A stretch of DNA of 64,000 nucleotides from an uncultured Armatimonadia bacterium (GTDB taxonomy: Bacteria > Armatimonadota > Zipacnadia > Zipacnadales > UBA11051), in NCBI GenBank assembly GCA_964390495.1, contig CAYMIN010000008.1, positions 92,831-156,830 on the forward strand, written 5' to 3'. Below are positions 1,440 through 51,412 of the stretch, in pieces. Position 1 is the first letter of the stretch. Every line of letters begins with the position of its first letter. The notes below the pieces were generated by a model that worked only from the letters and a program-made list of their open reading frames with translations, was not told where the DNA came from and did not search any database. A program made the position numbers and the translations under genes.

Positions 1440-4229
1440 ATGACAAAGCGCATATTGGTCATCTCCTTGTTGGTGCTGTTACTCGGCCTCAGCGGCTGTG
1501 GCCGACGTGGCATGGTGCGTTACAACCGCCAGAGCGATTTCTACACCCTGGGCGGGTTGCAGAGCGATTACACCTGGATTACCGATGTGGCCGACGGCTG
1601 GCGCACGACTATAGACCTGGAGGCCTCGGAGCTGCCTTCCTATGCCGACCTGGCGGCCTATCCGCTGGGCAATGGGGAGATCTTCGCCATCAATGGTCTG
1701 ATGGTTCCGCTTGGCACCCTGAGCAACACTGTCGGTCCTGGCTACCAGAAGTCCGGCGGCTTCTATGGCGCGATCATTCCGGCGGTGAGGGTGGCCGGCG
1801 CAGACGAAAACCTCCCCCAGCAGATGGTCGAATGGGTGCGCCAGGCTGGTGTAGTGCATACGGTGCGACGCAATGGCCGCATGGGCCTGCATATCTACGA
1901 CTGGGTCGCGCCCCGGCATAATTACTGGCACAGGCTGCTTATCGCCCAAAACCTTGGACAGGAACCGTTGCAGAATGTCGAGCTGATCCTGGCCATCAAC
2001 AATCCGGTCGAGGCAGCCGCCGGCGGTCGGCTTATCTGCACCCGGGCCGGCTCGCGGCTGACTCTTAGTGTCCTCGGCCGGGCCTTCGCCAAAGCCAAAG
2101 GCTACGAGGTCAACCTGCCCGAGGGCATCGAGGGTCTGCAACTGCTGACCGGCGTTGACGGCCTGGCTCATCTGGTCTGTCCGATCGGCACTATTGACAA
2201 GGGCCAGAGCGCCGGCAAGCTCTTCTATCTGGTGCTGGAGAAAAATGACCAGGAGACCCGTCCTGAGCAGTCGGCCTCGGCCATCGCGGACCCCGGCCTC
2301 GAAAGTTTGGTGGAGGCTTACGAGTACAACAGCGCCTGGCACAAGCAGGGCCTGGTCATTGGCACACCGGACCGCCGCCTCAACGATTTCATCGAGATCC
2401 AGAAGCACATTATCAAAGTCCAGCAGGCGGCCACTGGCGGCTTCGCCCCGATGGACAAATACACTTACACGTGGATCCGGGACAGCGTCGGGCCGGTCCG
2501 CTTCTGCCTCCAGGCCGGTTACTATGATGAGGTCAAGAAGTACCTCCGATACCAGTACATGGGCAATGCCAAAGCCGGCGAAATCCGGCTCAACCTGCCG
2601 CTCGACCTCGGAGAACCCCGCGACCTCGAAGACCCCGACTGGTCGCGCTATCCCGTCGAACGCGCCGAGGTGCCCAGCTACATCGTCCTGCAGCACTACT
2701 GGTACTATCTCCACACCGCCGATGCGGAGCTGATTGACAGGCACTGGAATTACCTCAAGCGCTGCATCTTCGGCCAGCAGATCAGCGAGCGCGGCACCCT
2801 CCCTTTCCACGGGGATGAGACCTATCGCTTCCCCGGCTATGAAGCCTTCAGACAGGGTCGGGATGTGCATGATTATGTCCAGCTTGAGTGCCAGTCGGCT
2901 GACTCGGCCTTTGAATTCGTCGCCGCCGCCGAGGCCATGGCCCAAATGGCGCGCGACCTCGACCGCTCCGAGGAGGTGGACGAGTTCACAGACATCGCTC
3001 GCCGGATTCGCCGCGCCACGGAGAAGTACTACTGGATGGGCGACCGTGGCTATTACGCGCCGGCGATGTCTGACTTCACCCAAGAGCGCCACCGCTACCC
3101 CTTCGCCACTATCAACCTGCGGCCGATCTGGATCGGCTATGCGCAACCCGATGCCCAACAGCGCTCGAACGTAACTAATTCGCTGAAGTACTTGTGGAAA
3201 GAGGGCGGCGGCGTGCGGGTCACGCCCGATTTCGGCTACTACACCACCATGGTGCCCGGCTTTGTGCTGTATAACCTGACCGAGATCGGGCACCCGTTGG
3301 CCGAGCACTGGGTGCAGCAGGTACTGGATATTGCCGAGGCCTCGGGCGGCTATGCCGAGATGAACACTCCGGAGGACCGCCCGGCCGAGGACATCTGGGG
3401 CCAGCACCGTTGTCGTCCCTGGGAGGGTGGTATCAACGCTCACGCCGTGGTCCACGCGTTCTTGCGCCCCCAGGTTGATGCCGTCAACAACCGCATCAGC
3501 CTGGCACCGCGGATTGCCCAGGACTGGCGGGTATTTGCGGCGGCCAATATACCCGTCGGCGAGAACCGCCTGGACCTGCGCATCTACGGTTCTCTGGGCA
3601 AGCGCATCTACGAGGTGACGGCTCAGGAGAGCGAGGATCCGCCAACTCTCGACCTCTATCTGGCTGTGCCGGGCCGCCGCAGTGTTGCCGTGGAGGGCCC
3701 TTACCGCGACTACGGGGGTCGGATTGTCAGCCGCAGCTATGACCAAAACGAGACGACCATTCACCTGGCCGGCATCAAGATGCCCTCCGCAGAGCAGATA
3801 CCGCTGGAGGTCACTTACGAGCCTTACACTGCGCCCGGCCATGGCCTGGGGACCGAGACCTTCCACTATGGTCCGGCCCAGGTCAACCGCCGCGCCGATA
3901 CGCTGCTCTTGACCTGGAACCCGGCCACCTACGAGCATTACCATAACCAGCTAGGCGACCGGCTGATGGCTCTGGACACCAAGATCCCGTGGCCGCCGAG
4001 CTACTTGCGCGGGCTGTTGCTACCGGAGGTCGGACGGGCGGGATTTACGAGGGTGCTGCTGGATGTTGACACTTATTCGGGCGGCTTCCGGCGGCCGGAC
4101 TTCTGGACCTCCGGCCGCGGCGGTCAACTGCTCAAGGAGTTTCAGGCCGTGGGTGGTAAGGTGGAAAAGGCGGAGAAAACCGACGAATTGCCGCCCAGCT
4201 ACCGCAACCTGCCTCGCGAGCAGAGCTGA
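1440..4229 (+). CDS. secreted lipoprotein, glycoside hydrolase family 15-like (glucoamylase/glucodextranase-type (alpha/alpha)6 barrel)
   Basis: ATG at 1440 gives a lipoprotein signal peptide (MTKRILVISLLVLLLGLSGC, lipobox LSGC). The motif YTWIRDS matches the GH15 YxWxRD signature. The 944-aa ORF starts 15 codons upstream of this ATG. Confidence 0.6.
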   Translation: MTKRILVISLLVLLLGLSGCGRRGMVRYNRQSDFYTLGGLQSDYTWITDVADGWRTTIDLEASELPSYADLAAYPLGNGEIFAINGLMVPLGTLSNTVGPGYQKSGGFYGAIIPAVRVAGADENLPQQMVEWVRQAGVVHTVRRNGRMGLHIYDWVAPRHNYWHRLLIAQNLGQEPLQNVELILAINNPVEAAAGGRLICTRAGSRLTLSVLGRAFAKAKGYEVNLPEGIEGLQLLTGVDGLAHLVCPIGTIDKGQSAGKLFYLVLEKNDQETRPEQSASAIADPGLESLVEAYEYNSAWHKQGLVIGTPDRRLNDFIEIQKHIIKVQQAATGGFAPMDKYTYTWIRDSVGPVRFCLQAGYYDEVKKYLRYQYMGNAKAGEIRLNLPLDLGEPRDLEDPDWSRYPVERAEVPSYIVLQHYWYYLHTADAELIDRHWNYLKRCIFGQQISERGTLPFHGDETYRFPGYEAFRQGRDVHDYVQLECQSADSAFEFVAAAEAMAQMARDLDRSEEVDEFTDIARRIRRATEKYYWMGDRGYYAPAMSDFTQERHRYPFATINLRPIWIGYAQPDAQQRSNVTNSLKYLWKEGGGVRVTPDFGYYTTMVPGFVLYNLTEIGHPLAEHWVQQVLDIAEASGGYAEMNTPEDRPAEDIWGQHRCRPWEGGINAHAVVHAFLRPQVDAVNNRISLAPRIAQDWRVFAAANIPVGENRLDLRIYGSLGKRIYEVTAQESEDPPTLDLYLAVPGRRSVAVEGPYRDYGGRIVSRSYDQNETTIHLAGIKMPSAEQIPLEVTYEPYTAPGHGLGTETFHYGPAQVNRRADTLLLTWNPATYEHYHNQLGDRLMALDTKIPWPPSYLRGLLLPEVGRAGFTRVLLDVDTYSGGFRRPDFWTSGRGGQLLKEFQAVGGKVEKAEKTDELPPSYRNLPREQS

Positions 4230-4246
4230 ACGGTGGGTGGCCGCTG

Positions 4247-5038
4247 CTATCTCACATAGATCACGCGCGTGCCCACGATTTGGTCGTGCCAACCGCGGTA
4301 CTCGCTATTGATCGCCACCGATAGAAAGAACAGGCTGCAGGTGCAGTTCTGCAGCATCAGCTTCACGACAATGCGCCCCAGCGCCAGACCGTAGCCGATC
4401 GGCCTGCCGTCGGTGCGCACTATCTTCATCCCCAGCGCCATCTTACCCAGCGTCGCCCCATACGTCCCGTTCATCAGCGTGAAATAGGCGACCTCAATCA
4501 GGGCCACCGGCAACTGCGCCAGTTGGAGAGCGACGCCGAACTGATCTGACTCGAAATCCAGCTCAATACCGGTCACCAGGAAGACTACGGCTATCAGCAA
4601 CCCCGAGGGGATTGCTAGGACGCAGCCGTCAATAATCAGCGCCGCCACTCGCGGCCAGAAGCCGGCGTTGTTGAACTGCTGCATGGGCGCTACCGGCTGG
4701 TATGGGGGCTGGTCCCGCGGAGCCGGCGGCGCTGGTGGAGGTGGTGGCGGAGGCGGAGGTGTAACTGGCTGCCCCGCGGTCACTTTCTCTGACGCTGGCT
4801 GCTCAAGCGGCGCCGGCTCGTCCAGTACGGAAGACAGGGGCACTGTCGGGCCGGTTGCCTGATATTCCGCCTCCGTCGGCTCCGGCACTTCAGGCGTCGG
4901 CGCCTCGGCGGTGGCCTCTCGCTGCGGCTTCGGCAGCACAGCCACACAGTGCGGGCAGACGATTGCGTCGCGGCTCACGATCCTCCCGCACTGTGGGCAT
5001 CGTCTCTCGGCTTCCGGCCCTTGTTGGTCCATCCGCAT
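4247..5038 (-). CDS. RDD-family membrane protein with N-terminal zinc-ribbon and a poly-proline linker
   Basis: CPQCG...CPHC zinc ribbon, a PPPPPPPPPAPPAP tract, and a C-terminal RDD-like TM domain (GATLGKMALGMKIV..). Confidence 0.6.
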   Translation of the reverse strand: MRMDQQGPEAERRCPQCGRIVSRDAIVCPHCVAVLPKPQREATAEAPTPEVPEPTEAEYQATGPTVPLSSVLDEPAPLEQPASEKVTAGQPVTPPPPPPPPPAPPAPRDQPPYQPVAPMQQFNNAGFWPRVAALIIDGCVLAIPSGLLIAVVFLVTGIELDFESDQFGVALQLAQLPVALIEVAYFTLMNGTYGATLGKMALGMKIVRTDGRPIGYGLALGRIVVKLMLQNCTCSLFFLSVAINSEYRGWHDQIVGTRVIYVR

Positions 5039-9018: not shown

Positions 9019-9146
9019 TCGTTGCCGTAGCCTTCAGGAGGGGCCGCAGGCGAGGCGGAAGCGCTAGCTTCCGCCGAGAATCCGGCCCAGTCGTTGTCGT
9101 TGCCCCTCTCCCTGTGGGAGAGGGGAGGGGTGATAGCAGCCTTGCC
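9019..9146. repeat. composite interspersed repeat, modules X-B-A (ccgttgcc..ggaggggccgca | ggcggaagc.tagcttccgccgagaatccggcccag | cgttgtcgttgCCCCTCTCCCtgtgGGAGAGGGG..gccttgcc)
   Basis: Homologous at roughly 85-90% to the element at 18279-18406. Each module contains a short palindrome. Confidence 0.75.
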
Positions 9147-18024: not shown

Positions 18025-18133
18025 CAAGACTGTTGCGTAGCGCTACGCGGCCGGCGACTGTGATGGCGAGTCCAGTCAGACCTATAATCCATAATCGCAG
18101 CGGTCGGGTGTTTGGCCCACCTATCCCCCTTTT

Positions 18134-18406
18134 GCTTCCCCCTTCCCGGGTACCCACGCCAAAGGCGTGGGTGAGGAAGGGGGTTAGGGGGTTAGGAAAC
18201 ATAATTGCGTGGGTCGGGCAAGCCGAAAGGCAACGTCTCAGCCTTTTGGCGCGTAGGTCGGGCTTTCCAGCCCGACGCCGTTGCCTTTGAGTCGTTTGGA
18301 GGGGCCGCATACGAGGCGGAAGCTTAGCTTCCGCCGAGAATCCGGCCCAGCCGTTGTCGTTGTCCCCTCTCCCTGGGAGAGGGCCAGGGTGAGGGCCGCC
18401 GTTGCC
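18134..18406. repeat. repeat cluster: module C (cccccttcccgggtaCCCACGCCaaagGCGTGGGtgaggaaggggg), module D (gcgtagGTCGGGCtttccaGCCCGACgcc), then composite X-B-A
   Basis: C recurs at 20480 and (degenerate) 37600. D recurs at 20558/20598 and 27951. X-B-A recurs at 9019. Confidence 0.75.
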
Positions 18407-20457: not shown

Positions 20458-20479
20458 CTACTCACCGAACCCCGTTTTG

Positions 20480-20670
20480 ATTCCCCCTTCCCGGGTACCC
20501 ACGCCGAAGGCGTGGGTGAGGAAGGGGGCTAGGCGGTTAGGCCGCATTATTCATGAACGCGTAGGTCGGGCATCTCTAGCTTGCATTGTTCGCGAAGGCG
20601 TAGGTCGGGCTTTCTAGCCCGACGCCGTTACCAGTCACGGACCAGCCAGGCTAGAAAGCCTGGCCTACGT
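20480..20670. repeat. repeat cluster: module C, tandem module D (one partial, one full), then module E hairpin (ccaggctagaaagcctgg)
   Basis: Module C here is about 90% identical to the copy at 18134. The cluster occupies most of the 387-bp spacer between the two EamA paralogues. Confidence 0.7.
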
Positions 20671-24710: not shown

Positions 24711-24819
24711 AAATTACCAGACTCCTCACGACTGTAACGCCGGCTTGGTTGCTGCTGCTGCCGTCAGTTGTTACTGTTTGTGGATGAGCATCGGGTGGTG
24801 ACGTTTTCGGCGTGTGTGT

Positions 24820-24882
24820 GCTTCCGCCGAGAATCCGGCCCAGCCGTTGCCTTGAGTCGTTGAAACGGGCCGCCAACGGCCC
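24820..24882. repeat. module B followed by an X-like module (cttccgccgagaatccggcccag | ccgttgccttgagtcgttgaaacGGGCCGccaaCGGCCC), immediately 3' of thiC
   Basis: Same modules as at 9019 and 18279, but in the opposite order. The terminal hairpin may double as the thiC terminator. Confidence 0.65.
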
Positions 24883-27950: not shown

Positions 27951-28050
27951 GCGTAGTTCGGGCTTTCCAGCCCGACAGCCGTTGCCGTTGCTGCTTGCCG
28001 TTATGCCTCTCCCTGTGGGAGAGGGCTAGGGTCAGGGCTGCCGTTGCCGC
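27951..28050. repeat. modules D + A (cgcgtagttcGGGCtttccaGCCCgacagccgttgcc | gttatgCCTCTCCCtgtgGGAGAGGGctagggtcagggctgccgttgcc)
   Basis: Same module order as inside the cluster at 18248-18406. Confidence 0.7.
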
Positions 28051-28070: not shown

Positions 28071-29966
28071 CTATTCCTCTGCCTCCTCATCATCCTCGCC
28101 CTTTTCATCCTCGCTCGGCAGCTCTTCGAGGCCCATGACATATTGCAGCTTCTGCCGGTCATACCCCTCGGCGATTCTCGCGGCGTTGAGGTACCACCGG
28201 TTCCCCTCCCCATATTCGAAGCAGTGGAAGAAGCTCAGGATCGAGGCCAGTTGCGCCCGCGTGGTGCGGCGAATGATATTGAGTTGCGCCCAGAGTTGGT
28301 TGAACGGCAGGCCCTTGTCATCGGCCAGTAGCAGCCTCATCACTTCTCTCAGGGGCGTGGGCCGATGGCTGAACCGATCGCGCCACGCGAACAGCTCATG
28401 CAGGGTGTCCTTACCGATATAGGTCTGGGCATCGGTCTCGTCGTCGTGGTGCAACAGATAGCGGCCGATGGCGTCGGCCTTGCTGATACTCAGCAGCGCC
28501 CCGGACGGCGGCAGATGGGTCTGATACCATGCTGACAGGCCGTATATCAGCCCGGTGTCCTTATTCAGCCACACATCCAGCAACTCATCGCCGTCGCAGT
28601 CGAGATTGACCATTGTCAGGGCGTCTTCAGCGGCGAAGAACTCACTGTCCATGGTGCGCAGCTTGATCGTGCCGGCGAGGTGGTGGTGGTACAGCACCGG
28701 GTAGGTCAGGGTTTCGGCCTTAGCGGCCACTGGTGCCACGTACAGCTCCCCGACGTCATCGTAGTACGGATCGGCGGCTGCCTCCAGCGCCTCCGCTGCC
28801 AGGCCCTCCGGATGCAGGATAACGTCCTCCGAGGTGAGTTCCCCCTCCTTGTTGACGGCTACGGTCCATTCCTCGGTCAGCAGCGCTCGCGGCACCGTCC
28901 TGGCCCACGGCGGTATTGCCGCAGCTCGCAGGTAGCGCCCCGGCTGTAGCTTCCTGACTCCCTCCACCCCCATCAGCAGCTCTGCCACTGCTTGCGCCGC
29001 CGGTGCGTATTTGCGCTGGTTGGGCGTCAAGCCCAGCACGTCCGCCAGCATCTGCTCGATGGTGAAGGGGGCCTTCGCGTGCTCGACCAGTCCTACAATG
29101 CCCGCCCGCTCTTGGTCCGAAAGCTCATAGCGCTTATCAGCGGCTATATCTTTGGCCAGGATCTGCTCCATATCAACTTCGTACTCCTGCGCCTCGGCCT
29201 TGGGCGCCTGCTTGCGCAGTGATTTCTCCAGGTCCCCGACCCATTCCGCAACTACCCAGCCCGGACCGGACACGCACACAAAGCGTTGCTTTTCATCATA
29301 TACCATCTGCCGCAGCAGCTCAGTCGCATCGTATTTCTCGCCCTGATGGCATCCGACCAAGAACCCCAGCGCCTTATTGGCTAGCGAGCGGTCTGCGGCC
29401 TGCAGCACATTGTAGGCGGTTTCCGTAAGACTCCGCGAGCCCAGCTTCTCATTGGTGCAGGTCTCCATGACCTCGGCCAGCTCGGCGTCCTCGGTTAAGC
29501 CGTTGAGGTATAGTACCCGCGCGGTATCGGTGCCGGGCATCGGCGTGAACACCCACTCGGGCAGGTAGATCAGTCCCTCCTCGAGCTCGGCTAGTTGTCC
29601 TCGTTGCAGCAGGCTTGCCACCAGGTCCCGGAAGAAGGCTCCGGTGCCTTTTTTGGTCCGCACCACTTCACTGGTCAGCAGCGCCTTGGCTATGGGTCTG
29701 CCGTAGCCGCTCAGCACGGCCTCGAATGCCCCGCCTACGGGTATTTCCGTCAGTGTTTGCCGGTAGGCGATATCGTAGGAGCCACCGATGGCTACGAAGC
29801 GTCCGTCCTCCGCGAGCACGGCTTCGACGAATTCGGCGGCGATATCGAGCTTTTCTGGCAGCAACGCGACCAGTTCTCTGCTCCTGGTCGGTCCGGGGCG
29901 GTAGATTAGTATATCGAACAGCAAGTCGGCTAGATAGCGCCTGGCCAGCTCTTTCTCTCTCAGCAT
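28071..29966 (-). CDS. hypothetical 631-aa protein with an acidic C-terminal tail (EDEKGEDDEEAEE); no recognisable domain
   Basis: Long ORF with a GGAGG RBS about 11 nt upstream of the ATG. Bracketed by repeat modules: D+A on the 3' side, A-like at 30735 on the far 5' side. Confidence 0.4.
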   Translation of the reverse strand: MLREKELARRYLADLLFDILIYRPGPTRSRELVALLPEKLDIAAEFVEAVLAEDGRFVAIGGSYDIAYRQTLTEIPVGGAFEAVLSGYGRPIAKALLTSEVVRTKKGTGAFFRDLVASLLQRGQLAELEEGLIYLPEWVFTPMPGTDTARVLYLNGLTEDAELAEVMETCTNEKLGSRSLTETAYNVLQAADRSLANKALGFLVGCHQGEKYDATELLRQMVYDEKQRFVCVSGPGWVVAEWVGDLEKSLRKQAPKAEAQEYEVDMEQILAKDIAADKRYELSDQERAGIVGLVEHAKAPFTIEQMLADVLGLTPNQRKYAPAAQAVAELLMGVEGVRKLQPGRYLRAAAIPPWARTVPRALLTEEWTVAVNKEGELTSEDVILHPEGLAAEALEAAADPYYDDVGELYVAPVAAKAETLTYPVLYHHHLAGTIKLRTMDSEFFAAEDALTMVNLDCDGDELLDVWLNKDTGLIYGLSAWYQTHLPPSGALLSISKADAIGRYLLHHDDETDAQTYIGKDTLHELFAWRDRFSHRPTPLREVMRLLLADDKGLPFNQLWAQLNIIRRTTRAQLASILSFFHCFEYGEGNRWYLNAARIAEGYDRQKLQYVMGLEELPSEDEKGEDDEEAEE

Positions 29967-30115
29967 ACGCCGAACTACCTCCGATGTGTTTGGGATACTT
30001 CTGGGCTAACTGCTGGTGGCTTGGTTAGTGGGAGGACTGATGTATTGTACCACAGAATTGACAATGGGGGCAAAGAGTGGTATGCGCGGGGCTTGGCAGT
30101 GGCTTCGTCTTAGGT

Positions 30116-30160
30116 GTTGCTGTTGGCGTTACTATAGTTGTTCCCGTTGTCGTTGTCTTG
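30116..30160. repeat. degenerate hexanucleotide tract (GTTGNN)x7: gttgct gttggc gttact..gttgtt ccc gttgtc gttgtc ttg
   Basis: Read directly from the sequence; it lies in non-coding DNA. Confidence 0.5.
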
Positions 30161-30337
30161 AGGAGGGGCCGGCTGAACGCAGTGAAACCGCCCCGCGTGC
30201 CGCTGCCGTTCACCGCCTCCCGTTTCGGAGGGTACCCACTGTGGAACAATGGGTGAGCAAGGGCGTAGGCGCCATCGGCTTCCGGAAGGTCCCGGTCTTG
30301 GCGATCGCTGGCGTGGGGTATGGTTGTGTCAGCCGCC

Positions 30338-30387
30338 ATAAAGTAGCACCCGCCGGGCTGTGGGAGAAGCCCGGCGGGCTCTACTTC
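30338..30387. other. very stable hairpin (aagtagCACCCGCCGGGC-tgtgggagaa-GCCCGGCGGGctctactt; ~17-bp stem with one bulge)
   Basis: Read directly from the sequence. On the minus strand it is followed by UUUAUGG, so it is a candidate terminator or processing structure for a minus-strand transcript. Confidence 0.5.
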
Positions 30388-30556
30388 GTCCGCCCTGCCT
30401 GCGTAGTCAGTTGCAATGTCGGGCGGCGCGTATCTGCTCTTAGCCTGGGCGCAAGTCAGGGGGGCGACTTATCGAACTAAGAGCAGACTAGGGTGGGATG
30501 CTGCGAGTAAAGCTATGTTTAGGCTGCTGCACCTGTTCCTGTACAACCCTTCACCT

Positions 30557-30586
30557 AGTATAAGCAACATCCTTAACCTATGTCAA
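30557..30586 (-). promoter_or_regulatory. sigma70-like promoter on the minus strand: TTGACA - 18 nt - TATACT inside an ~80-bp AT-rich island
   Basis: Reverse complement of 30557-30586 reads TTGACAtaggttaaggatgttgctTATACT. It would drive transcription towards the hairpin at 30387-30338 and the hypothetical gene that starts at 29966. Confidence 0.4.
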
Positions 30587-30734
30587 GACCTATTTTGATT
30601 CTTTTTCCGAAAGACCTAGTCACCCGTCCTCAACTGCGGGGCTTCCGGCGGCTGGTTGCGTCTATTGTTCGGTCTTGCCACGGGTTGACCAGCCGCAAGA
30701 CATGCGCGTAACTCTTCCAGCCTGAGTCCCTGGC

Positions 30735-30792
30735 CGCTGCCCTTCTCCCCCGACCGTCTCGGGAGAGGGCGGAGGGCTAGGTGCCGTTAGCT
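30735..30792. repeat. module A variant (ccCTTCTCCCccgaccgtctcGGGAGAGGGcggagggctaggtgccgttagc)
   Basis: Shares the CTCTCCC..GGAGAGGG palindrome and the ctaggg..gccgtt tail with the copies at 9097, 18361, 28005 and 37521. Confidence 0.6.
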
Positions 30793-30831
30793 TGCTCATT
30801 TCCTATGCCGGCGGTAGCCTCCCGAAGGTTT

Positions 30832-30843
30832 TTCTGCTATAAT
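30832..30843 (+). promoter_or_regulatory. extended -10 element TGcTATAAT, about 130 bp upstream of the ABC transporter operon
   Basis: Sequence ttctgctataatgcg on the plus strand; the -35 region is weak. Confidence 0.35.
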
Positions 30844-30973
30844 GCGTGGCCGGGAACTACTGGGCCGGACTTGTGCGTTTGGCTTAGTGGCAGGGATGTT
30901 AGTGCTGGCGTGGCAATTGTGAGGCGGCCGGGGGCAGCTTACTCGCGCCGCCGGGAGGTGTTTCACCATAGGC

Positions 30974-31891
30974 TTGGCTATCCGGACCGACAACCTTTCC
31001 AAGATCTACTCCCACGATGCGACCGGGCGGCCGGTGGGGCTGATTGATCTGTCACTCGCAGTTGAGGAGGGACAGATTTTTGGTTTGTTGGGCCCTAACG
31101 GCTCCGGCAAGACCACTACCCTCAAGCTGCTGCTCGGGCTGATCTTTTCCACCAGCGGCAGCGGACAGATCTTCGGACATCCCCTAGGCAGCAACGCCAC
31201 CAAGGAGCGCATCGGCTTTCTCCCCGAGGGGCCGTATTTCTACGAACACCTCAACGGCATGGAGCTGCTCAGCTTCTACGGCACGCTCTTCGGCATGGGC
31301 GGCAGCCGACTGGCCGGCCGCGTCGAGGAGCTCCTGCATCTGGTGGGGATGTGGGACCGCCGCTTCATCCGCGTGCGCGACTATTCCCGGGGCATGCGCC
31401 AGCGTGTGGGTGCGGCTCAGGCCATGATCAACGATCCCGACCTGCTCTTCCTCGACGAGCTCACCTCCGGACTTGATCCCATCGGCGCTATGGAGATGCA
31501 CGAGCTGATACTGCGATTGCGCGACCAGGGCAAGACCATCTTCCTCTGCAGCCATCTGCTCAAGGACATGGAGCCGCTCTGCGACCGGGTGGTGATTCTT
31601 GATCGCGGCGAGATGTGCCAAAGCGGCGTTGTCGAGGACCTCTTGCGGGTCGAGAATCAGTACCGACTGTTGCTATCCAATTGCTCCGACGAGCTGACAC
31701 AGCAGTTGCAGGCCTCAGCCCAGCGCACCGAGGCTGTGGACGACCAGTTGGCGGCCTACTACACCGACCAGAGCGCCGCCTTGGCCGCGGCCCAGCAGGC
31801 CGCCGCCGCTGGTGCCGTTATCGAGGCGCTCGGCGCTCATCACCGTACCCTCGAAGAAGTCTTCATTGAAGCTGTGGGAGGCGAGAAATGA
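30974..31891 (+). CDS. ABC transporter ATP-binding protein (ABC-2 exporter type)
   Basis: Walker A GPNGSGKTT, signature LSGGMRQR-like (YSRGMRQR), Walker B LLFLDE. TTG start with a GGGAGGTG RBS. Confidence 0.8.
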   Translation: MAIRTDNLSKIYSHDATGRPVGLIDLSLAVEEGQIFGLLGPNGSGKTTTLKLLLGLIFSTSGSGQIFGHPLGSNATKERIGFLPEGPYFYEHLNGMELLSFYGTLFGMGGSRLAGRVEELLHLVGMWDRRFIRVRDYSRGMRQRVGAAQAMINDPDLLFLDELTSGLDPIGAMEMHELILRLRDQGKTIFLCSHLLKDMEPLCDRVVILDRGEMCQSGVVEDLLRVENQYRLLLSNCSDELTQQLQASAQRTEAVDDQLAAYYTDQSAALAAAQQAAAAGAVIEALGAHHRTLEEVFIEAVGGEK

Positions 31892-37511: not shown

Positions 37512-37650
37512 TGCCGTTGTCGTTCTCCCCTCTCCCGTTTCGGGAGAGGGCTAGGGTGAGGCCTGCCGTTGCAGGGGCACATGGCATGCGCCCGTGCCTC
37601 CTAACACCCTAGCCCCCTTCCCTATCAGGGAAGGGGGAATGGGGGATAGG
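37512..37650. repeat. module A + GC hairpin + degenerate module C (cgttCTCCCCTCTCCCgtttcGGGAGAGGGctagggtgaggcctgccgttgc ... cctaacaccctagCCCCCTTCCCtatcaGGGAAGGGGG)
   Basis: Lies between recD2 and the CBM9/GH-like gene. Confidence 0.65.
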
Positions 37651-43985: not shown

Positions 43986-44129
43986 ACGGGTGTCGAGAGC
44001 CCGTTGCTCTCAAAGCCTTTCCTTGTCCAGCTTGGTGACCCTTGCTGTCCAGGCCCTGGCGAGCATACACACAAGTTCTTGGTGGCCGGTAATTCAGACA
44101 CCACAGACTCTGGCACCAGTCCCAAGCTA

Positions 44130-44203
44130 CAATACTTTCCTGGACGACAGGCATCCTTGCCTGTCGAAGGGCGTGGACAGGCTGGGAAGCCTGTCCTCCA
44201 ACG
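44130..44203. repeat. Family-F element, copy 3 (cctggacgacaggcatccttgcctgtcgaagggcgtggacaggctgggaagcctgtcctcc)
   Basis: The most complete copy; it has both hairpins. Confidence 0.7.
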
Positions 44204-51275: not shown

Positions 51276-51340
51276 GCGGGCACCGGTTGCAGTTGAGACA
51301 AGGCACCACGCTAAGGTATAATGACGGCAGGAGCGAAACA

Positions 51341-51412
51341 CCATACCAGCCAGGACGACAGGCATCCTTGGTTGTCGAGAACTGCGGACAGGCTGGGAAG
51401 CCTATCCTCCTG
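51341..51412. repeat. Family-F element, copy 4 (ccaggacgacaggcatccttggttgtcgagaactgcggacaggctgggaagcctatcctcc)
   Basis: About 85% identical to the copy at 44130. Confidence 0.7.

Follow-up and report, generated by a model that had tools for sequence, protein, structure and literature searches.

The 64,000-nucleotide stretch of uncultured Armatimonadia DNA analysed here (contig CAYMIN010000008.1; hereafter the window) carries a spacer of about 1 kb (29967-30973), bounded on one side by a 631-aa open reading frame (ORF) and on the other by an ATP-binding cassette (ABC) ATPase ORF, and this spacer raises the question of what is encoded between the two genes. An earlier note on this DNA had listed several promoter-like, hairpin and repeat elements within it, each of which is found at or near the place assigned to it, and had offered two explanations: a small RNA (sRNA) of ~200 nt ending at a long hairpin, or a ~580-nt leader belonging to the 631-aa gene. 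Comparison with relatives resolves the spacer into three conserved units and unconserved filler, and its centre is very probably an independent gene for a structured non-coding RNA of ~213 nt, that is, a real stand-alone sRNA gene. The combined statement that this gene stands alone and that its product acts in trans by anti-Shine-Dalgarno (anti-SD) base pairing is an even call. The sRNA constitutes a previously undescribed family in a phylum that has received little study; its kind is already known, and it is not a new kind of system.

The orthologous spacers, whose comparison the earlier note had proposed, come from the window and two syntenic loci in metagenome-assembled genomes (MAGs), L001 (Candidatus Zipacnadia, Armatimonadota) and L002, both retrieved by a genome scan with the 631-aa protein, which is ~75% identical in each; their alignment finds the sRNA block conserved in these related genomes. 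The first conserved block runs from a minus-strand promoter through the hairpin, the second comprises a plus-strand extended -10 promoter with ~115 nt of leader, and the third holds a further minus-strand promoter (30073-30044) together with the Shine-Dalgarno (SD) sequence of the 631-aa gene, while the DNA between the three is unalignable. A promoter scan reports three promoter-like sites in the region, against 0.5 expected from shuffles. The promoter-to-terminator block is the best-conserved non-coding sequence of the spacer and, with its consistent fold and compensatory changes, bears out the sRNA explanation.

Gene anatomy and predicted fold

The sRNA gene consists of the following elements, P1 to P4 being the helices of the modelled fold.

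30586-30557, minus strand: sRNA promoter, with a -35 box TTGACA (30586-30581), an 18-nt spacer and a -10 box TATACT (30562-30557)
30550 to ~30338, minus strand: sRNA transcript of ~213 nt, with predicted ends
30490-30550, minus strand: 5' domain with terminal helix P1, in which AGGGU (30550-30546) pairs with ACCCU (30494-30490)
30432-30488, minus strand: long hairpin P2, in which 30488-30475 pairs with 30445-30432
30465-30458, minus strand: loop of the apical hairpin P2b, invariant and C-rich, GCCCCCCU in the window
30452-30446, minus strand: 3' internal loop of P2, invariant GCGCCCA
30390-30426, minus strand: hairpin P3, an invariant 6-bp helix CCGCCC/GGGCGG (30426-30421 with 30395-30390) closing a 25-28-nt loop
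30387-30338, minus strand: terminator hairpin P4, with loop UCUCCCAC (30367-30360) and U-rich tail UACUUUAUG

The minus-strand TTGACA-N18-TATACT promoter is present as the earlier note had described it and matches 11 of 12 consensus positions, making it a near-consensus promoter of sigma-70 type. Its CTTGACA and TATAyT motifs are invariant in all lineages that carry the sRNA, the spacer between the hexamers being free to vary, and an A-rich UP-like tract lies directly upstream (~30587-30606). The sRNA would be transcribed from this promoter on the minus strand, starting at an A ~7 nt past the -10 box, and would end at the intrinsic terminator, after its U-rich tail. Specifically, the long hairpin described earlier begins 170 nt downstream of the -10 box, as that note had it, and is built from 19-nt arms (30341-30359 and 30368-30386) that are 89% complementary and enclose an 8-nt loop; it folds at -41.7 kcal/mol (z = -4.0), a stability reached by 0 of 200 shuffles, and a terminator scan also calls it at 30387-30338. 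A U-rich tail follows the GC-rich hairpin in all sRNA lineages. The RNA as a whole has a minimum free energy (MFE) of -98.4 kcal/mol (z = -5.3), and a covariance-model search places a single copy in the window. An Rfam scan, a check likewise put forward earlier, returns no relevant match for the spacer: there is no hit at the gathering threshold over the whole window, and only three unrelated weak matches appear across 29800-31100 at E<=10. ARAGORN detects no tRNA or tmRNA.

The fold was modelled on seven distinct sequences from five lineages (alignment A6). RNAalifold, covariance model R1 and the seven independent MFE folds agree on four domains, apart from P1, which is predicted in six of the seven individual folds and is missing in L002 only. 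In this model a 5' domain closed by a terminal helix would be followed first by a long hairpin, then by a hairpin that has a GC clamp and a large loop, and last by the terminator. The interior of the 5' domain is mostly single-stranded and conserved (CCUAAACAUAGCUUyAC), and P1 pairs in 100% of alignment cells, with one compensatory change from G-C to C-G (L016). P2 pairs in 96.9% of cells and shows a compensatory U-A to C-G change together with a bulge swap in L023. Every individual fold includes P3, the loop of which has a conserved 3' part, GCAGGCA; covariation is silent on this helix either way because all six of its pairs are invariant. The terminator carries compensatory changes in three pairs, located at the base and the top of the stem, and its loop motif CUCCCAC is invariant. 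A nearly invariant core, GGUCGCCCCCUUGACUUGCGCCCAGGCU.AGA.CAGA, is also recognizable in the sRNA.

Across the alignment as a whole, 95.1% of cells pair and compensatory double changes occur in seven pairs (12 cells), against 0-3 compensatory pairs and 33-45% pairing in controls whose partners were slid by 1-3 columns. The observed covariation score is reached by 0 of 500 shuffles. Most of the helices never vary, and selection therefore acts on the sequence as well as on the pairing. Further helices or pseudoknots were considered, including CUUGCG/CGCAGG and alternative partners for GGGCGG; these are possible but invariant or inconsistent and are left unsupported.

Conservation and linkage to the ABC-2 operon

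The sRNA is found in seven distinct sequences, with nhmmer and covariance-model matches of 124-264 bits. In addition to the two syntenic loci, carriers were obtained through homologues of the neighbouring ABC-2 permease: P0015 (90% identical; L023-25), P0016 (84%; L012-15, WS1/biogas MAGs) and P0017 (82%; L016-17), the sRNA being present in the L012-L017 and L023-L025 sets. The organism of the window itself recurs in several public assemblies (L008-L011). The sequence is under purifying selection. Its identity across lineage pairs is 69-92%, fourfold-degenerate sites of the adjacent permease reach 29-85% and lie below the sRNA in every pair compared, and the conservation of the sRNA equals the total nucleotide conservation of a well-conserved protein gene. 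Both promoter hexamers and the hairpin are kept in all seven sequences and five lineages, and the flanking sequence is unalignable. Alignment gaps of 1-4 nt are scattered through the sRNA and its conservation is blockwise, without codon periodicity; because of these gaps, and since no ORF is conserved, the sRNA is not coding. A side observation concerns two WS1 genomes: L012 and L013 have permease genes that are 100% identical in nucleotides and sRNAs (2505-2727, minus strand) that are only 98% identical, with differences mostly in loops, one of which, a U-to-C change, gives the terminator loop CCCUCCCAC, a better anti-SD sequence; the far-side neighbourhood of L013 also differs from that of L012.

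The position of the gene is constant on one side and variable on the other. The sRNA is always divergent from the ABC ATPase gene and lies ~300-450 nt upstream of it, and its far-side neighbour may be the 631-aa gene, a DUF6785 gene, a small hypothetical ORF (L013) or a GlgC-like NTP transferase gene. In L012, L014 and L015 the sRNA is convergent with the DUF6785 gene, and in L012 it consequently has no downstream gene to regulate in cis. Because the far-side neighbour differs, adjacency to the ABC-2 operon is the conserved feature; judged by synteny, the sRNA travels with this operon and not with the 631-aa gene. Beside operons whose permease is 67-72% identical (L018, L026, L028, L030) the sRNA was not found, even with the covariance model run unfiltered, and the family therefore seems confined to a sub-clade.

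Wider searches added no further members. A metagenome search with the pattern CTAAACA..CTCGCAGC..CCCTAG gave 0 matches, although JGI contigs obtained otherwise contain the pattern, so that the collection evidently lacks these samples. A second pattern, TTGCGCCCAGGCTNAGAGCAG, retrieved one known contig together with L021 and L022 and no true new members, and a scan of viral contigs returned one chance match and no sRNA member. L022 was rejected as a relative, being coding sequence matched by chance. L021 (Ga0179593_1694058, 4140-4270, minus strand) is a ~100-nt sRNA-like element. It has a box resembling a promoter and a strong terminator bearing a long run of T; a 23-nt core (UUGCGCCCAGGCU.AGAGCAGAC) is all that it has in common with the sRNA, P2 and the other sRNA helices being absent, and it gives no covariance-model match. 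The resemblance may have arisen by chance, or L021 may be a very distant relative.

On the opposite strand, the operon that accompanies the sRNA begins with a conserved unit of its own.

30815-30843, plus strand: ABC-2 operon promoter, with a weak -35 box TAGCCT (30815-30820) and an extended -10 box TGcTATAAT (30835-30843)
30850-30973, plus strand: 5' leader of the ABC-2 operon, ~115 nt and structured, with a 5' hairpin bearing a GGGAACUA loop, a long-range helix and a GC hairpin
30953-30960, plus strand: SD sequence of the ATPase gene, GGGAGGUG
30968-30970, plus strand: likely AUA start codon of the ATPase gene, in frame and after the SD sequence
30974-31891, plus strand: ABC ATPase ORF, with an ABC-2 permease and then a tetratricopeptide repeat (TPR) protein encoded downstream

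The plus-strand extended -10 element proposed earlier is located at 30835-30843 and is conserved in relatives, where the sequence GGTAGCCTC...TTTTTCTGCTATAATGCG recurs in the window, L001, L002 and L023 and in variant forms in L012 and L016. Of the 28 pairs predicted in the leader, six show compensatory changes; even where a lineage lacks the sRNA, the GGGAAC motif, the SD sequence and the AUH codon (AUA, AUC or AUU) persist. The leader has no Rfam match and may be an uncharacterised cis-regulatory element. The ATPase start was compared across lineages that include the window, L001, L002, L012, L016, L018, L023, L026, L028 and L030. In all 11 lineages GGAGGUG is followed at a distance of 6-8 nt by an in-frame AUA codon or, in two of them, by AUC or AUU, and the TTG at 30974 that the ORF finder takes as the start is CTA, TTA, TCA or CTC in other lineages. 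Because the TTG is replaced by non-start codons in several of them, translation of the ATPase probably begins at the non-canonical AUA at 30968, a reading drawn from codon comparison. Public gene calls for this protein range from 275 to 334 aa. Attempts to name the transporter more closely were set aside, NCBIfam giving only generic DrrA/GldA-like matches below curated cutoffs, and the operon may be described, at the level of a generic match, as a putative DrrA-type exporter.

Proposed pairing loops and candidate targets

Three invariant C-rich motifs are unpaired in the consensus and in the individual folds: GCCCCCUU in the P2b apical loop, GCGCCCA in the P2 internal loop and CUCCCAC in the terminator loop. 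The sRNA would act in trans by base pairing, these motifs pairing with the G-rich SD regions of mRNAs and blocking translation initiation, and the ribosome-binding site of the permease cistron would be one plausible target. This anti-SD mechanism is tentative and falls somewhat short of an even chance. It parallels that of RsaE/RoxS, whose C-rich regions pair with G-rich SD sequences and block translation initiation (PMC4409812). Like these RNAs of Firmicutes, the present sRNA stands alone with its own promoter and intrinsic terminator and has conserved C-rich motifs at several sites that are predicted to be single-stranded, one of them a loop of the CCCCUU type (GCCCCCUU in this RNA and CCCCUUUGUU in RoxS), and in design it appears most similar to them. 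It differs in coming from Armatimonadota, in its four-domain architecture with a 5' terminal helix, and in that its SD pairing is only predicted; the Rfam model of that family matches it neither in sequence nor in structure, and because of this it fails membership. RsaE/RoxS RNAs are roughly 100-115 nt long, and the sRNA described here, at ~213 nt, is about twice their length.

The most specific candidate for pairing lies at the junction of the ATPase and permease genes.

31871-31880, plus strand: candidate sRNA target GCUGUGGGAG, overlapping the permease SD sequence (ATG at 31888) and complementary to the loop segment CUCCCACAGC

The window was scanned for complements of each of the three motifs, and this 10-nt site is the longest non-self complement of the terminator loop in its 64 kb, tied with two repeat copies described below. 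An 8-bp core of the pairing is present in six of the seven lineages, and the duplexes predicted in all seven range from -17 to -25 kcal/mol, which puts them among the best 1-4% of local windows. Where the terminator loop varies in its 5' half, the substitutions are only U/C exchanges (CUUCU, GUCUCU, GUCCCU, CUCCU). The two tied complements are copies of a repetitive extragenic palindromic (REP) module on the plus strand (9112-9121 and 28013-28022; CUGUGGGAGA), each a 10-nt perfect complement of the loop; REP-containing transcripts are conceivable partners of the sRNA, unless the match is coincidental.

Several points weigh against a stand-alone sRNA acting by anti-SD pairing. The covariation rests on few events, drawn from only seven sequences of five lineages in which most helices are invariant, and alignment A6 had been adjusted to fit the fold model. 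The pairing of loop and permease mRNA ranks only in the top 1-4% of local windows, and its mRNA site is also constrained as coding sequence for the conserved C-terminus of the ATPase. No clean compensatory change is seen, L001, L002 and L023 having a C-A mismatch where L012 has G-U. In addition, strong SD sequences in general would pair with C-rich loops in general, so that the match need not be specific, and the CUCCCAC seed sits within a terminator loop of only 8 nt. No consistent complementarity of the sRNA to the conserved ABC leader was found; pairing between the two was rejected, the matches being scattered, G-U-rich and 8-12 nt long, and the sole recurrent one using the buried strand of the terminator stem. 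Finally, entire helices that are near-invariant could suggest an RNA that is bound by protein or folded in tertiary structure.

This last point is the core of the strongest alternative, under which the sRNA is real but has a protein-binding or structural role, as a component of a ribonucleoprotein (RNP), a sponge or a tertiary fold, its loops serving as contacts and not as seeds. Under this alternative reading the near-invariant 36-nt core would be the binding platform of an unknown Armatimonadota RNP. The conservation indeed exceeds what pairing needs, P3 and most of P2 being invariant and the 36-nt core almost unchanged; the invariant GGGCGG could pair alternatively with CCGCCC, CGCCC or UCGCCC, the CUUGCG/CGCAGG pairing could form a loop-loop helix, and the promoter looks strong and constitutive. 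Yet the RNA matches no known housekeeping or protein-binding family and has no linked candidate partner protein, and its narrow clade, with absence beside the operons of 67-72% permease identity, fits regulatory sRNAs better than essential RNPs. A protein-binding or structural role is judged unlikely.

Somewhat less probable still is the proposal that the sRNA is a dedicated regulator of the ABC-2 operon. The anti-SD sequence of its terminator loop would then pair with the permease ribosome-binding site at the ATPase/permease junction and gate or tune permease translation, and a single co-inherited module of post-transcriptional control would unite the sRNA with the structured leader, whose hairpin bears GGGAACUA, and with the apparent non-AUG start codon of the ATPase (AUA, AUC or AUU). 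The sRNA has stayed beside the operon while its other flank was rearranged at least two or three times, the longest non-self loop complement in 64 kb falls on the permease SD sequence, and favourable duplexes are predicted in all seven lineages. Moreover, both partners have changed in L016, where the loop CUCCUCCC and the mRNA UUGGAGGAA create a new 6-bp UCCUCC/GGAGGA match. Against this stand the post-hoc nature of the finding and its modest statistics, the coding constraint already mentioned, and the A/G loop and C/U mRNA polymorphisms, which do not co-vary; the 225 nt between the two promoters are not conserved, and the adjacency may be historical rather than functional. Because of the coding constraint, and because polymorphisms on the two sides do not co-vary, the permease site is treated as a lead only.

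Remaining spacer elements and known RNA systems

The stand-alone sRNA gene and the operon unit leave a remainder of the spacer that is occupied by filler, by repeats and by the start of the 631-aa gene.

30074-30337, strand not assigned: filler, containing the GTTGNN tract and most of a 104-aa ORF, unaligned in the window, L001 and L002
30025-30339, minus strand: 104-aa ORF, Thr/Pro/Ala-rich, without homologues
30735-30792, plus strand: module-A copy, a REP-like dispersed repeat with UCUCCC-loop-GGGAGAGGG
30073-30044, minus strand: promoter of the 631-aa gene, TTGCCC-N18-TGgTACAAT, with an extended -10
28071-29966, minus strand: 631-aa ORF, without Pfam or NCBIfam match

The earlier note had described a (GTTGNN)x7 tract at 30116-30160 and had dismissed the ORFs of the spacer as Trp/Cys/Arg-rich artefacts. 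The tract exists, but GTTG opens only four of its seven hexamers, and it goes unreported by Tandem Repeats Finder; GTTGNNGTTGNNGTT with at most one mismatch occurs four times in the window against 0.5 expected, two of the four falling in the tract, which resembles the CGTTG units that flank dispersed repeats. As to the ORFs, the 104-aa frame was rejected as a small protein and is not a gene, because it has no homologues and sits in a stretch that does not align between relatives, although its composition is Thr/Pro/Ala-rich and not the one described. The module-A repeat is confirmed as one of a dispersed family, with other copies at ~9094, 27995 and 37520 and a mean column identity of 72% in a four-way alignment; the stretch between the two divergent promoters that contains it is not conserved in relatives. 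Several families of intergenic modular palindromes resembling REP elements or miniature inverted-repeat transposable elements (MITEs) are also seen at 9037-9141, 18118-18366, 20463-20632, 24818-24859, 27951-28042, 37520-37567, 44129-44199 and 51340-51410. These families include the UCUCCC/GGGAGAGGG module and flanks of CGTTG units, and they explain both the module-A copy and the GTTGNN tract, which are unconserved dispersed repeats outside any conserved unit.

This abundance of REP-like repeats, and a 79-aa ORF (30241-30480, plus strand; 1487-1726 in L008-L011) that gene callers have annotated in public records antisense to the 3' half of the sRNA, could be taken to mean that no functional RNA exists and that the block is either a conserved DNA element (a repeat, or a set of regulatory sites) or what remains of a plus-strand gene. 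Such an origin is very improbable. The sRNA block was rejected as a REP/MITE repeat, being single-copy in the 64 kb where only the separate module-A is multi-copy; promoter and terminator are consistently placed and oriented in all lineages, and the RNA helices are preserved by compensatory changes. The 1-4 nt alignment gaps break any frame, the 79-aa ORF is not called at this position in L012, L016 and L023, and it is probably spurious.

The 631-aa gene is served by its own signals. Its promoter, conserved in L001 and L002, is followed by a ~70-nt leader and a GGAGGU SD sequence, and a counterpart (TTGCCT-17-TGgTATAAT) precedes the 55% identical homologue in L004; because block 3 recurs there, the promoter belongs to the gene itself. 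In the loci of the homologues at 53-64% identity (L003-L007) the gene upstream is MiaB-like and the sRNA is absent; the upstream spacers measure 90-170 nt in four loci and ~770 nt in L004. The view that the sRNA is a long regulated 5' leader of the 631-aa gene, a riboswitch or attenuator with a conditional terminator, agrees with its lying upstream of and co-oriented with that gene in the window, L001 and L002, but the ~580-nt leader is extremely improbable and is ruled out because the gene has a separate conserved promoter and SD sequence, the ~260 nt between the sRNA terminator and this promoter do not align in the three spacers, the distant homologues without the RNA show no constant linkage, and the sRNA faces a convergent gene in L012 and has another neighbour in L023.

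Three side observations concern the 631-aa gene. The protein has 13 homologue clusters only, and the taxon-labelled ones are all Armatimonadota. The gltX gene follows it in the window and in L003-L007. The ~770-nt gap of L004 (2230-2860) is filled by long perfect REP-like palindromes and not by the sRNA.

Two other known arrangements invite comparison with the stand-alone sRNA. Divergently encoded sRNAs beside related genes include MicF-ompC, OxyS-oxyR and SgrS-sgrR, which have in common with the present gene a divergent, promoter-to-promoter arrangement with a protein-coding operon that is conserved in relatives. There is no homology to them, however; here the DNA between the promoters is unconserved, no regulator gene is adjacent, and a complementarity of 8-10 nt no more than hints at a functional link to the ABC-2 operon. 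Like 6S RNA, the sRNA falls in the size range of ~180-215 nt, has a strong promoter and is highly conserved in sequence, but it folds into four separate helical domains and not into a rod with a central bubble, matches no Rfam 6S model even at E<=10, and is confined to a narrow clade. On the grounds of its multi-hairpin fold and the lack of an Rfam match, identification as a 6S RNA was rejected.

Armatimonadota are known largely from MAGs, and a literature search found no report of regulatory RNAs in this phylum. The family described here is cleanly delimited and absent from Rfam; its promoter, terminator and fold are described, and a covariance model and a target hypothesis accompany it. The lineages that carry it are represented by MAGs of Zipacnadia- and WS1-like type, sampled in sediments and biogas reactors. 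Recognition of the sRNA gene also corrects the public annotation of an antisense 79-aa ORF. More broadly, the C-rich anti-SD design of Firmicutes may recur in a distant phylum.

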